A stretch of DNA of 64,000 bases from Escherichia coli (GTDB taxonomy: Bacteria; Pseudomonadota; Gammaproteobacteria; Enterobacterales; Enterobacteriaceae): assembly GCF_050920415.1 (NCBI RefSeq), contig NZ_CP169309.1. The stretch is one strand, 5' to 3'. The translations under genes and the position numbers were made by a program. How positions within the stretch are numbered: the stretch's first letter is position 1; each line of letters starts with the position of its first letter. The notes beneath the pieces are model-generated. The model was not told the origin of the DNA. It did not search any database and saw nothing but the letters and a program-made list of their open reading frames with translations. Shown here in pieces: positions 7,722 to 20,396 of the stretch.

Positions 7722-8507
7722 CTACGCGTCTTCCTGGGGAAGGATGATTTCAATTTGGCTGTCTTGTAAGCGTGATTTTAGCGCAGCGGGCGGCAGCTCG
7801 TCGGTAAAGAGCGCAGTGACCTGTGCCACGTTACCAATTTCAACCGCCGCCGAAGCATGATACTTAGTGTGATCGGCGACCAGCAGAATATTTCTCGCGT
7901 GCGCCATCATCGTTTTCACCACGTTAGCTTCGTTTACATCAAACTCCATCAACGCGCCATCGCTCTCAATCGCCCCAACGCTTGTTACCAGATAATCAGC
8001 CCGAAAATCGGCCACAAAGGAAGCCGCTGAAGGGCCAATGATCCCGCTATTATGAGAGCGCAACGTACCGCCGGGCACCATCACTTCAAAGCGCGGGTTG
8101 TGGTACAGAATATGCGCCACACGCAGGCTGTTCGTGATTATCCGCAAATGATTATGGTTAAGTAACGCCCGGGCGACATGTTCGACAGTCGTACCGATGG
8201 TGATAAATATTGTCGATCCATCAGGAATATAGTCTGCCACCGCTTCGGCAATCGCTTTTTTCTCTTCAGTTTGCGAAACCTCACGCTGTTCGAACGCCGT
8301 ATTAACGACGCTGGAGGCCCGACCCGCGCCACCGTGATGGCGCGTGATCAGCCCTTGCTCGCTTAATTTACGAATATCCCGGCGGACCGTCTGCGTGGAA
8401 ACATCCAGCAGATTTGCCAGCTCATCAATATTCATATACCCACGCTCGGCGATCAGCATGAGGAGTTGGTCGTGCCGCGGGTTACCGGTCAGTTCGGTAA
8501 GGCTCAT
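7722..8507 (-). CDS. yihW: DeoR-family transcriptional regulator of the sulfoquinovose cluster (CsqR)
   Basis: N-terminal HTH (IDELANLLDVSTQTVRRDIRKL) plus DeoR C-terminal sugar-binding domain; 261 aa. Confidence 0.9.
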   Translation of the reverse strand: MSLTELTGNPRHDQLLMLIAERGYMNIDELANLLDVSTQTVRRDIRKLSEQGLITRHHGGAGRASSVVNTAFEQREVSQTEEKKAIAEAVADYIPDGSTIFITIGTTVEHVARALLNHNHLRIITNSLRVAHILYHNPRFEVMVPGGTLRSHNSGIIGPSAASFVADFRADYLVTSVGAIESDGALMEFDVNEANVVKTMMAHARNILLVADHTKYHASAAVEIGNVAQVTALFTDELPPAALKSRLQDSQIEIILPQEDA

Positions 8508-8540
8508 GAAAATTCCTCGAAAAACCATCACCCTGGCATT

Positions 8541-9437
8541 TTATACAAAAAGTGACAAAAAAGATCGGGTTTGATCACAGTCAGGGATCCCGGCACGCCC
8601 ACCGGGACGCGTGCATTTTAACGCCGCCACACCGCTGGCAAAGCGGACGGAATCCGCTAAATCTCCACCTGTTGCCAGCGCCACCGCCAATGCGCCGTGA
8701 AAAACATCGCCCGCACCGGTAGTATCTACCACATCAACTTTGAAAGCTGGCTGATGCTGTCGCCCGCCATTCTCCAGCCAGTCACAGCCTGCACTGCCCT
8801 GAGTAACATAGACATGTCCATTTGTGAGCATTTGTGCCTGTTTTAGGGCACTCGCCATCTCTTTCACGCCCGTTAGCCGCGCCAGACCCGGTTCTGAAAA
8901 AGCGGCATGATCGCTTAACGCCACCAGCTCACTGATATCCTGCGGCGTAATATCACCGTCCAGCACGGTCATCACGCCCACCTGCCGGGCCAGGGTGAAG
9001 GCTTTTTTCGCGCCGTCGTGCCAGCGTACATCTGCCAGCACCACGTCCCACTGAGAGAAATCAATTTCCTCCAACCACTCTGCGTCAGGCAGCAGGTCCG
9101 GGCTGGGATAGTTAATGATGATTCGCTCTCCTTTGGCATCCACCATGATGGCGGATTGCGAAGATTTCGCCTGGTTATACCGTTTGGTGTAACGGGTGTT
9201 AACGCCCCAGGATTCCAGCTCTGCCAGCAGGCTGTTGCCCGTGTCGTCGTCACCGACGCGACCAATAAAATCGACCTGCGCACCCAGTCTGGCCGCCGCA
9301 ACTGCTGCTGTAGCCGCTGGCCCGCCGCCAACTTCCGTATAATTTTTCGCCACGTATTTACCGCTCTCCGTCGGCAACCCTTCCACGTAATAGATGCGAT
9401 CCATCACGGTAATTCCTACACAAGCAACACGAATCAT
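8541..9437 (-). CDS. yihV: 6-deoxy-6-sulfofructose kinase (PfkB/ribokinase family)
   Basis: PfkB family signature GAGDVFHGA near C-terminus; position in cluster. Confidence 0.9.
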   Translation of the reverse strand: MIRVACVGITVMDRIYYVEGLPTESGKYVAKNYTEVGGGPAATAAVAAARLGAQVDFIGRVGDDDTGNSLLAELESWGVNTRYTKRYNQAKSSQSAIMVDAKGERIIINYPSPDLLPDAEWLEEIDFSQWDVVLADVRWHDGAKKAFTLARQVGVMTVLDGDITPQDISELVALSDHAAFSEPGLARLTGVKEMASALKQAQMLTNGHVYVTQGSAGCDWLENGGRQHQPAFKVDVVDTTGAGDVFHGALAVALATGGDLADSVRFASGVAALKCTRPGGRAGIPDCDQTRSFLSLFV

Positions 9438-9443
9438 GGTCAT

Positions 9444-9604
9444 TCCTTAAGCATTTTGGGATGCGTTCATTTTAATTTCACCAATTGTTTAAAAAGTGAC
9501 GGCTGTCAATTTTTTGACGATAAATTACAAATACGATCAAAAACAGACAAGCAAGGCATGTCATAAATGACAAAAAGTGACATCACTGTATTCAGGAGAG
9601 GGTT
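9444..9604. promoter_or_regulatory. Divergent yihV / yihU intergenic promoter region (expected CsqR operator region)
   Basis: AT-rich 160-bp divergent intergenic region between oppositely oriented operons; regulator binding inferred from literature, not mapped here. Confidence 0.5.
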
Positions 9605-18192: not shown

Positions 18193-18232
18193 ATAATAAA
18201 CAACGCCCTGCGGGGCGTTATAAGGAGTGATT

Positions 18233-19636
18233 ATGTCTGACCATAATCCACTGACATTAAAACTGAATCTGCGGGAAAAAATCGCTTATGGCATGGGCGA
18301 CGTCGGTTCGAATTTAATGCTTAGCATCGGCACTCTGTATCTCCTCAAATTTTATACCGATGAATTAGGGATGCCTGCTTACTATGGCGGGATTATCTTT
18401 CTGGTGGCAAAATTCTTTACCGCGTTTACCGATATGCTCACCGGATTTTTACTCGACTCGCGGAAAAATATTGGGCCTAAAGGCAAATTTCGTCCCTTTA
18501 TTTTATATGCAGCGGTTCCGGCGGCGTTAATTGCAACGCTCCAGTTTATCGCCACCACTTTTAGTTTGCCGATTAAAACGACGATTGCCACCGCGCTGTT
18601 TATGATGTTTGGACTTTCATACAGTCTGATGAACTGCTCGTATGGCGCGATGATCCCAGCAATTACCAAAAACCCCAATGAGCGCGCGCAGCTTGCGGCT
18701 TACCGCCAGGGTGGTGCAACCATAGGGCTATTGATTTGTACCGTAGCATTTATTCCACTGCAGTCGCTTTTTTCTGACTCCACTGTCGGTTATGCCTGCG
18801 CGGCACTGATGTTCTCCATTGGTGGCTTTATTTTTATGATGCTGTGCTACAGAGGCGTCAAAGAGCATTATGTGGACACGACGCCAACCGGACATAAAGC
18901 CAGTATTCTCAAATCTTTTTGCGCGATATTTCGTAATCCGCCATTGCTGGTTTTATGCATTGCTAACCTGTGTACCCTGGCGGCATTTAATATCAAACTG
19001 GCAATTCAGGTCTATTACACCCAGTATGTGCTGAATGATATTAATTTATTGTCGTGGATGGGATTCTTCAGTATGGGATGCATCCTCATCGGCGTATTGC
19101 TGGTGCCATTAACTGTAAAATGTTTTGGTAAAAAACAGGTTTATTTAGCTGGCATGGTGCTGTGGGCGGTGGGGGATATCCTGAATTATTTCTGGGGCAG
19201 TAACTCTTTCACTTTCGTCATGTTCTCTTGTGTCGCCTTTTTTGGTACGGCCTTTGTAAACAGCCTGAACTGGGCGCTGGTACCGGATACCGTAGATTAT
19301 GGTGAATGGAAAACCGGTATTCGTGCCGAAGGTTCTGTTTATACCGGTTATACCTTCTTTCGTAAAATTTCAGCCGCACTTGCTGGCTTCTTGCCAGGCA
19401 TTATGCTGACGCAAATCGGTTATGTTCCCAACATCGCGCAAAGCGATGCAACATTACAGGGTTTGCGTCAGCTCATTTTTATTTGGCCTTGTGCGCTGGC
19501 GATAATTGCTGCATTGACGATGGGATTCTTTTACACGCTCAATGAAAAACGTTTTGCGTTAATTATTGAGGACATCAACCAACGTAAAAATAAAGAGATT
19601 GAGACAAAAGAAAAAACTGCTTCTGTAACGTTATAA
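18233..19636 (+). CDS. yihO: GPH-family sugar:cation symporter (sulfoquinovose cluster transporter)
   Basis: 467 aa, paralog of yihP with many identical blocks (e.g. NCSYGAM, PAITKNPNERA). Confidence 0.88.
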   Translation: MSDHNPLTLKLNLREKIAYGMGDVGSNLMLSIGTLYLLKFYTDELGMPAYYGGIIFLVAKFFTAFTDMLTGFLLDSRKNIGPKGKFRPFILYAAVPAALIATLQFIATTFSLPIKTTIATALFMMFGLSYSLMNCSYGAMIPAITKNPNERAQLAAYRQGGATIGLLICTVAFIPLQSLFSDSTVGYACAALMFSIGGFIFMMLCYRGVKEHYVDTTPTGHKASILKSFCAIFRNPPLLVLCIANLCTLAAFNIKLAIQVYYTQYVLNDINLLSWMGFFSMGCILIGVLLVPLTVKCFGKKQVYLAGMVLWAVGDILNYFWGSNSFTFVMFSCVAFFGTAFVNSLNWALVPDTVDYGEWKTGIRAEGSVYTGYTFFRKISAALAGFLPGIMLTQIGYVPNIAQSDATLQGLRQLIFIWPCALAIIAALTMGFFYTLNEKRFALIIEDINQRKNKEIETKEKTASVTL

Positions 19637-19703
19637 ATGTCAATAGCCGCTATTTCCATCCTGATGGGTGGCGGCCCCCCTACGTTAAAAAAATGGACTT
19701 ATT

Positions 19704-20396
19704 ATGAAAAAGATTAATGCAATAATTTTATTATCTTCTCTGACCTCTGCCTCGGTATTTGCTGGCGCATACGTCGAAAACAGGGAGGCATATAATCTCG
19801 CCTCCGATCAGGCAGAAATTATGCTACGTGTAGGTTATAACTTCGATATGGGCGCGGGTATCATGTTAACCAATACCTATAATTTTCAGAGAGAAGATGA
19901 GCTTAAACATGGCTACAATGAAATTGAAGGTTGGTATCCTTTATTCAAACCAACCGATAAATTAACCATCCAGCCCGGTGGATTAATTAATGATAAGAGC
20001 ATCGGTTCGGGTGGCGCAGTGTATCTGGACGTCAACTATAAATTTGTACCATGGTTTAATCTGACAGTGCGAAATCGCTATAACCATAATAACTATAGTT
20101 CAACAGATTTGAACGGGGAACTGGATAATAATGACACCTATGAAATTGGTACCTACTGGAATTTTAAAATTACCGAGAAATTCTCCTATACATTTGAGCC
20201 ACATTATTTCATACGCGTAAATGACTTTAATAGCAGCAATGGAAAAGATCATCATTGGGAAATCACTAATACCTTCCGTTACCGTATTAACGAAAACTGG
20301 CTCCCTTATTTCGAATTACGCTGGTTAGATCGTAATGTCGAACCGTACCACCGCGAACAAAACCAGATTCGTATCGGGACGAAGTATTTCTTCTGA
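19704..20396 (+). CDS. ompL: Outer membrane porin L
   Basis: 230 aa with N-terminal signal peptide (MKKINAIILLSSLTSASVFA) and C-terminal aromatic residue F. Confidence 0.88.
   Translation: MKKINAIILLSSLTSASVFAGAYVENREAYNLASDQAEIMLRVGYNFDMGAGIMLTNTYNFQREDELKHGYNEIEGWYPLFKPTDKLTIQPGGLINDKSIGSGGAVYLDVNYKFVPWFNLTVRNRYNHNNYSSTDLNGELDNNDTYEIGTYWNFKITEKFSYTFEPHYFIRVNDFNSSNGKDHHWEITNTFRYRINENWLPYFELRWLDRNVEPYHREQNQIRIGTKYFF

Follow-up and report, generated by a model that had tools for sequence, protein, structure and literature searches.

The 64-kb stretch of Escherichia coli DNA analysed here (the window, to whose numbering all coordinates refer) contains at positions 7722-20396 a cluster that we identify with great confidence as the chromosomal yih locus, which specifies sulfoglycolysis of the Embden-Meyerhof-Parnas type (sulfo-EMP). 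It lies at its usual site between yihX and yihN and is present in an 11-gene form, in which the ten canonical genes are joined by a gene for a TauE/SafE (TSUP) family permease. The outer ends of the region are exact, position 7722 being the end of the csqR stop codon and 20396 the stop of ompL. The cluster itself is a textbook locus that is already known and publicly annotated gene by gene, and an earlier first-pass annotation of this DNA had correctly called it established biology. Beyond the known literature the present analysis makes incremental additions, which concern how common the TSUP gene is and how it recurs between species, how extremely the control region is conserved, and a candidate box for the regulator CsqR. 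Taken jointly, these lead us to propose that the 11-gene form is a third common cassette variant of E. coli (~24%), that the TSUP protein is a dedicated exporter of 2,3-dihydroxypropane-1-sulfonate (DHPS) interchangeable with YihP, and that the direct repeat [G/T]ACA-N6-GACA is the CsqR recognition element; we put this combination forward tentatively, as one that falls a little short of an even chance.

Identity and integrity of the locus

Lists of open reading frames (ORFs) show eleven long frames in the region, two on the minus strand and nine on the plus strand, with a short divergent spacer between them. In a megablast search of window positions 7000-21000 against complete E. coli genomes, this 14-kb stretch was found to be 100% identical to part of the chromosome of E. 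coli MFDS1022581 (NZ_CP169399.1), and all eleven genes are named in the RefSeq annotation of that identical stretch. The neighbours, yihX-yihY-dtd-fabY on one side and yihN-yihM-yihL-typA on the other, are laid out exactly as in K-12 MG1655. As a test of integrity each gene was translated and then globally aligned with its K-12 MG1655 orthologue. The ten canonical proteins are 93.2-100% identical to their K-12 counterparts at the amino acid level, with no internal stop, frameshift or internal gap, and their lengths equal those of K-12 for all but YihR (300 amino acids here versus 308 annotated in K-12). The first-pass annotation had listed these ten genes as present and intact, and the ORF lists, the RefSeq annotation and the K-12 alignment bear this out for presence, integrity, place and strand, with careful alignment revealing no frameshift or truncation in any of the ten. 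The functional label that it gave to each gene also stands, as RefSeq and K-12 annotation, near-identity, NCBIfam equivalogs and solved structures all agree.

Scores above the NCBIfam cutoffs were obtained with equivalog models for YihU, YihR, YihQ and OmpL, and with the GPH-symporter model TIGR00792 for both YihP and YihO, which agrees with the earlier mention of two GPH symporters. The accessory set is complete, with the mutarotase YihR, the GPH permeases YihO and YihP and the porin OmpL all above these cutoffs. YihV gives a full-length match to the PDB entry 7ag6 ("Sulfofructose kinase", E 2e-196), the crystallised form of which has 298 amino acids, and residues 1-678 of YihQ match PDB 5aed, the E. 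coli sulfoquinovosidase, with 1595 bits. In YihQ the residues D405 and D472, which we take to be the catalytic nucleophile and acid/base, are conserved here. The same holds for the sulfonate-pocket residues R301, W304 and Y508 of YihQ and the sulfonate-binding residues R123, N174 and S178 of YihU (named in PMC8006165), as well as for Met25 and the proposed ligand residues R150, N153, S176, E193 and K215 of CsqR (PMC10991401). Orthologues of YihS, with 85-99% identity, occur in syntenic clusters of ~50 Enterobacterales, and the arrangement of csqR beside yihV and divergent from yihU is likewise kept in ~50 members of this order. These comparisons directly show that the genes are present and intact, with their orthology and synteny, and that the named residues and the regulatory DNA are conserved; every defining feature of an E. 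coli-type sulfo-EMP cluster that is testable on sequence is present.

A number of points weigh against this identification. DNA identity to K-12 is 92-97% across the genes of the locus, which is lower than expected between E. coli strains, although the differences are nearly all synonymous. CsqR, YihV, YihT and YihS found no above-cutoff NCBIfam model, only below-cutoff relatives (DeoR/GlpR in the case of CsqR), and since these hits fall below cutoff we base the assignment of the four proteins on their near-identity to K-12 and, with YihV, also on the PDB match. The functions of the genes in an MFDS1022581-type locus are assigned by orthology throughout, and even for K-12 the annotation of YihO, YihP and OmpL as transporters is marked "putative". 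Finally, the insertion of the TSUP segment replaces all DNA more than 64 bp upstream of yihQ, so that any K-12 yihQ promoter lying beyond that distance would be missing here.

The first-pass annotation had set five starts too far upstream because it took the longest ORFs. The corrected starts are 8507 instead of 8531 for csqR, 9437 instead of 9443 for yihV, 12779 instead of 12725 for yihR, 16807 instead of 16774 for yihP, and 18233 instead of 18227 for yihO. For csqR the ATG at 8507 is favoured, because with the transcription start of K-12 (-27/-28) the mRNA would begin only 3-4 nt ahead of the GTG at 8531. In yihR the K-12 start "MSLIKVPC" reads "RFLIKVPR" here and has no start codon, whereas the next methionine (MQITNM...) is conserved; the 300-residue protein fits positions 1-299 of the 300 of NF011719. 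As the start codon of the 308-residue form is missing and the ATG at 12779 is conserved, the difference in length is one of start-codon annotation, and this suggests that the K-12 YihR annotation is 8 codons too long.

Some further observations concern the allele and its relatives. Over the whole 19 kb from 5176 to 24000, flanking genes included, DNA identity to K-12 is ~94.5-95.6%, and among the matches listed six other complete genomes exceed 97% over the 14-kb query; the allele of the 5176-24000 region is rare among sequenced E. coli. Many enterobacterial sulfo-EMP clusters give no hit for yihR and many give none for ompL, so that the cluster seems able to do without these two genes. JAEWTL010000022.1, a contig of 2.9 kb that carries the label "MAG: Bacillota bacterium" (MAG, metagenome-assembled genome), encodes YihT, YihS and YihR proteins that are 96-99% identical to those of E. 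coli; it is probably a misbinned Escherichia contig.

Table 1. Genes and regulatory elements of the yih locus in window coordinates (aa, amino acids; percentages are amino acid identities to K-12 unless stated otherwise).
Feature	Position	Strand	Assignment and evidence
csqR (yihW)	7722-8507	-	DeoR-family repressor of the cluster, 261 aa; 100%; RefSeq csqR
csqR promoter region	8508-8590	-	overlaps the last ~15 codons of yihV
yihV	8541-9437	-	sulfofructose kinase (PfkB family), 298 aa; 98.0%, gapless; PDB 7ag6
yihV/yihU divergent control region	9438-9604		167 bp; 164/167 bases identical to K-12
CRP-like site AAAGTGACGGCTGTCAATTTTT	9493-9514		centre of near-invariant block; probable placement
Candidate CsqR operator GACAAAAAGTGACA	9569-9582	+	direct repeat GACA-N6-GACA; 23-36 nt upstream of the yihU ATG
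yihU	9605-10501	+	sulfolactaldehyde 3-reductase, 298 aa; NF012005, 597 bits (cutoff 348); 97.7%
yihT	10525-11403	+	sulfofructose-1-phosphate aldolase, 292 aa; 98.6%, gapless; RefSeq name agrees
yihS	11419-12660	+	sulfoquinovose isomerase, 413 aa; 99.0%, gapless
yihR	12779-13681	+	sulfoquinovose mutarotase (aldose-1-epimerase), 300 aa; NF011719, 611 bits (cutoff 251); 93.2%
TauE/SafE (TSUP) family permease gene	13742-14617	+	291 aa; RefSeq WP_000345432.1 "sulfite exporter TauE/SafE family protein"; outside the canonical ten
yihQ	14725-16761	+	sulfoquinovosidase (GH31), 678 aa; PDB 5aed; NF007746, 1241 bits; 97.8%
yihP	16807-18192	+	GPH-family symporter, putative DHPS exporter, 461 aa; TIGR00792, 533 bits (cutoff 231); 99.3%
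yihO	18233-19636	+	GPH-family symporter, putative sulfoquinovose importer, 467 aa; TIGR00792, 528 bits; 98.5%
ompL	19704-20396	+	outer-membrane porin, 230 aa; NF007434, 469 bits (cutoff 288); 97.4%

The additional TSUP gene: distribution and constraint

Between yihR and yihQ a segment of 988 bp (13673-14660) replaces an unrelated 145 bp of K-12. The "extra" TSUP gene noticed in the first-pass annotation is indeed an eleventh gene inside the range, at 13742-14617. Its product matches the Pfam family PF01925 with an E value of 4.7e-35 (residues 23-248 against positions 2-235 of the 237 of the model), and a scan of the protein against NCBIfam matched no family. Of 5426 complete E. coli genomes 1295 carry the segment, among them O157:H7 strains and the enterotoxigenic strain ETEC H10407; K-12 lacks it. 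In the megablast comparison with complete E. coli genomes, at least 80% of the 14-kb query is covered at one place in 3875 of them. As a rough estimate, ~24% of the genomes have the long form with the TSUP gene and ~48% a K-12-like long form, while most of the cluster is missing from ~29%, a group compatible with the "short" cassette of PMC12608037. Neither the main text of that study nor the other literature searched on enterobacterial yih clusters mentions a TauE or sulfite-exporter gene.

Orthologues of the TSUP protein, with 75-100% identity, are encoded inside 16 enterobacterial sulfo-EMP clusters. The gene lies between yihR and yihQ in five of these (E. whittamii, Citrobacter sp. wls619, Superficieibacter, Mangrovibacter and Salmonella enterica subsp. 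diarizonae), directly after yihQ in ten (e.g. Kluyvera, Pantoea, Atlantibacter, C. freundii and Lelliottia), and upstream of csqR in the remaining one. The TSUP gene is hence a recurrent but movable accessory of sulfo-EMP clusters that occupies three positions. In two clusters, those of an Enterobacter MAG and of Lelliottia nimipressuralis, the TSUP gene and the yihO orthologue are kept and yihP is absent, which suggests that the TSUP protein and YihP might be interchangeable.

The gene is under strong purifying selection: its ratio of nonsynonymous to synonymous substitution rates (dN/dS) is 0.008-0.065, and the comparison with E. whittamii yields 38 synonymous differences and a single nonsynonymous one. 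Recent transfer from E. whittamii was considered as a reason for the near-identical protein and rejected, because DNA identity is only ~95-96%; the near-identity therefore reflects constraint rather than recent exchange. We also looked for a scar of TSUP deletion in K-12, but the 145 bp show no significant similarity to the 988-bp segment (the best being a 27-nt A/T-rich match), and on the available sequences the direction of the event, loss or gain, is not readable from the junction.

The divergent control region and a candidate CsqR box

The region between yihV and yihU, which the first-pass annotation had placed at 9444-9604 with a length of 160 bp, is present as claimed, although it really extends over 9438-9604 (167 bp). 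It differs from K-12 at three positions only, whereas the neighbouring coding DNA is only 93-97% identical, with 93-95% for the genes on its two flanks. Cluster genes were mapped in 78 loci encoding YihS relatives (one genome per species), and 51 distinct enterobacterial yihV/yihU spacers were aligned. A block of ~85 bp at 9468-9551 (CATTTTAATTTCAC...TGTCAATTTTTTGAC.ATAAATTACAAATACGATCAAAAACAGACA) is almost invariant in these 51 spacers (~50 species), while the proteins encoded on either side are only ~70-97% identical to those of the window; the block is thus far more conserved than the flanking coding DNA. Its centre is occupied at 9493-9514 by a CRP-like site, AAAGTGACGGCTGTCAATTTTT, which resembles the CRP consensus TGTGA-N6-TCACA, and at the corresponding position Pasteurellaceae clusters have TGTGATCTATGTCAC. 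On these grounds the CRP site probably lies exactly at 9493-9514. In K-12 this spacer is the single strong target of CsqR in genomic SELEX (PMC8249747), and yihU promoters and CRP binding have been mapped in it (PMC5816610). A scan with promoter consensus sequences returned no site in the control region and fewer sites overall (11) than in shuffled sequences (15.3), and is uninformative; a scan of 7000-21000 against Rfam gave no RNA family at the gathering threshold.

A second regulatory stretch lies upstream of csqR. The first-pass annotation had spoken of a divergent regulator operon, and while the divergent yihV-csqR unit is there, it is not simply one operon, as K-12 has a separate csqR promoter, with a transcription start at -27/-28 from the ATG and CRP binding (PMC5816610). 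This stretch is fully conserved here, and the csqR-yihV spacer of 33 bp is identical to K-12 at 33 of 33 positions. Reading in the direction of csqR, the promoter includes a TATAAA -10 element and a candidate CsqR box, TGTCACTTTTTGTA (8544-8557 on the plus strand). CsqR binds a yihV/W fragment in electrophoretic mobility shift assays (PMC12608037). Across ~50 Enterobacterales all three codon positions are frozen in the last ~15 codons of yihV (8541-8590), whereas third positions deeper in yihV vary; the codons at the end of the gene are probably frozen because the csqR promoter, the CRP site and the candidate operator overlap them.

The search for operator repeats in the control region produced a candidate direct repeat, GACA-N6-GACA, at 9569-9582. 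In this element upstream of yihU, GACAAAAAGTGACA, the GACA units are conserved while the letters of the spacer vary between species. Two copies of the 13-mer ACAAAAAGTGACA, and no more, exist in the 64 kb, one inside 9569-9582 and one at 8545-8557, between the -10 and -35 positions of the csqR promoter, and the pattern KACA-N5-TGACA matches only 9569-9582 and this csqR-promoter copy. The more general form [GT]ACA-N6-GACA is found in 45 of the 51 yihV/yihU spacers and upstream of csqR in 47 of 51; its background frequency in these loci is 0.019 per 167 bp. As it occurs in both CsqR-bound fragments and is phylogenetically conserved, we infer that the direct repeat [G/T]ACA-N6-GACA is a candidate CsqR box, with the caveat that CRP also binds both of the fragments that carry the repeat. 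A first motif, AWAAVWKACA, which drew on every A-rich/GACA repeat in the spacer, matched 8 times where 3.4 matches were expected; 3 of 100 shuffles reached that number, and some of the matches lay outside the cluster. It was dropped because the leftmost repeat, AAAAAGTGAC, is the left half of the CRP-like site that is kept in Pasteurellaceae as TGTGATCTATGTCAC. Near-matches at 34042-34099, between yihA and polA, were treated as unrelated to CsqR. The near-invariant control region and the repeated box offer precise targets for mutagenesis of the CsqR/CRP switch.

Functional interpretation and alternatives

By analogy with other sulfoglycolysis systems, the most likely role of the TSUP protein is export of DHPS, overlapping with that of YihP, since TauE-type proteins are predicted exporters of sulfolactate or DHPS in other sulfoglycolysis clusters and the genomic context agrees with this. 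That it might instead export sulfite, or import sulfoquinovose or its glycosides, seems unlikely, though we still give this alternative appreciable weight. The Pfam family bears the name "Sulfite exporter TauE/SafE", TSUP proteins are poorly characterised as a group and named after a 4-toluene sulfonate uptake permease (PMC8873060), and the protein's lack of an NCBIfam match leaves room for such roles. Export of sulfite is argued against by the cluster encoding no desulfonating enzyme that would release it, the K-12 pathway ending at DHPS (PMC8006165). An importer would fit poorly with the two species that retain the TSUP gene and the orthologue of the putative importer yihO while the putative exporter yihP is absent, and the assignment of TauE-type proteins elsewhere in sulfoglycolysis to export of C3-sulfonates speaks against both variants. 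The recurrent TSUP gene, found at times where yihP is absent, provides a concrete and testable handle on which protein exports DHPS, the product by which E. coli cross-feeds sulfonate-respiring bacteria of the gut.

Two further alternatives concern the cluster as a whole. Kaznadzey et al. have proposed a second, lac-independent route for lactose, with CsqR as a lactose-responsive dual regulator, in which case an intact cluster would not serve primarily or only for sulfoquinovose. Reported in its favour are lactose-dependent changes in yih transcription and effects of yihW deletion (PMC5816610), and docking of lactose as a CsqR ligand (PMC10991401). We consider it very improbable, given that the enzymes are highly selective for sulfonated intermediates through dedicated sulfonate pockets (PMC8006165), whose residues are conserved here, that K-12 responds to sulfoquinovose with an induction of at least 5 in log2 fold change in RNA-seq (PMC12608037), and that recurrent linkage to a sulfonate-type TSUP permease fits the metabolism of sulfonates, not of lactose. 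The cluster could also be transcriptionally silent or decaying in this lineage, as has been reported for the short cassette that E. coli Nissle 1917 carries. In E. coli the yih locus is evolutionarily labile, with ~29% of complete E. coli genomes lacking most of the 14-kb stretch, short cassettes are not induced by sulfoquinovose (PMC12608037), and the present allele is 4-8% divergent from K-12 at the DNA level. Against this, all eleven genes are intact, identity to K-12 is 100% for CsqR and 98-100% for the two regulatory regions, and the divergence is almost entirely synonymous, as in the TSUP counts against E. whittamii or the dN/dS of 0.018 of YihS, which indicates continued purifying selection. 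A silent or decaying cluster is accordingly the least credible of the possibilities considered.

Predicted pathway and regulation

The enzyme activities and the regulation of the sulfo-EMP cluster can be proposed from the K-12 literature (PMC8006165, PMC5816610, PMC8249747, PMC12608037). Sulfoquinovose and its glycerol glycoside, sulfoquinovosyl glycerol, would be taken up by means of OmpL and YihO, and the glycoside would be hydrolysed by YihQ. YihR is predicted to interconvert the anomers of sulfoquinovose, and YihS to isomerise it to sulfofructose and also to sulforhamnose. Phosphorylation of sulfofructose by YihV would be followed by cleavage by YihT to sulfolactaldehyde and dihydroxyacetone phosphate (DHAP), with the latter entering glycolysis and the former being reduced to DHPS by YihU. 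DHPS would then leave the cell, putatively through YihP and probably also through the extra TauE/TSUP permease. The DeoR-type regulator CsqR is expected to repress the cluster by binding cooperatively within the yihV/yihU spacer of 167 bp, and by binding at the promoter of its own gene, and to be released by sulfoquinovose, sulfoquinovosyl glycerol or sulforhamnose, while cAMP-CRP would act on the same regions. Growth on sulfoquinovose with stoichiometric excretion of DHPS, and induction by sulfoquinovose, have been demonstrated only for K-12 (PMC12608037, PMC8006165). For the window at large the value of the cluster is one of context, in that it marks this part as core-genome carbohydrate and sulfonate catabolism.

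Other sequence features

The least conserved spacer of the cluster is that between yihS and yihR (12661-12778), which shows insertions and deletions relative to K-12 (118 versus 137 bp, identity in 107 of 141 aligned columns). Directly after the yihP stop codon and ahead of the ribosome-binding site of yihO lies, at 18200-18221, a G+C-rich hairpin of 9 bp, ACAACGCCCTGCGGGGCGTTAT; it is kept in K-12 and may be an intra-operon RNA structure. The palindrome CCTGTAATAACAGG at 14670-14683 lies ~45 bp upstream of yihQ, within the 64 bp that are common to K-12 past the TSUP insertion. Outside the sulfo-EMP cluster, between yiiE and fabY, a transposase gene and a truncated pseudogene of a hypothetical protein in a low-GC stretch at 2509-4323 (GC ~0.43) look like the remnant of an insertion sequence.

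Comparison with known systems

The closest relative of the locus is the ompL-yihOPQRSTUV-csqR cluster of K-12 MG1655 (b3875-b3884), with which it shares the ten canonical genes, their order and orientation, and the flanking genes yihX and yihN. The proteins are 93-100% identical between the two, the csqR-yihV spacer is the same, and the yihV/yihU region differs at 3 of 167 bases. Unlike K-12, the present locus has the 988-bp TSUP segment between yihR and yihQ in place of 145 unrelated bp, its yihS-yihR spacer is 19 bp shorter, its DNA is 92-97% identical, and the start codon of the 308-residue YihR is missing. It also belongs to the "long" type of yih cassette, ompL-yihOPQRSTUVW, described at a conserved chromosomal position by Kaznadzey et al. 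2025 (PMC12608037), but whereas that survey recognises two forms, long and short, the locus here is the long form plus the TSUP gene. With respect to the permease itself, the nearest parallels are SftE of the sulfoglycolytic transaldolase (sulfo-TAL) pathway and the TauE protein of the sulfo-EMP pathway of Arthrobacter sp. AK04, which belong to the same Pfam family, are likewise embedded in sulfoquinovose clusters and go with excretion of a C3-sulfonate. In contrast to both of these, the TSUP protein here stands beside the GPH-family putative exporter YihP and is not the sole candidate exporter.

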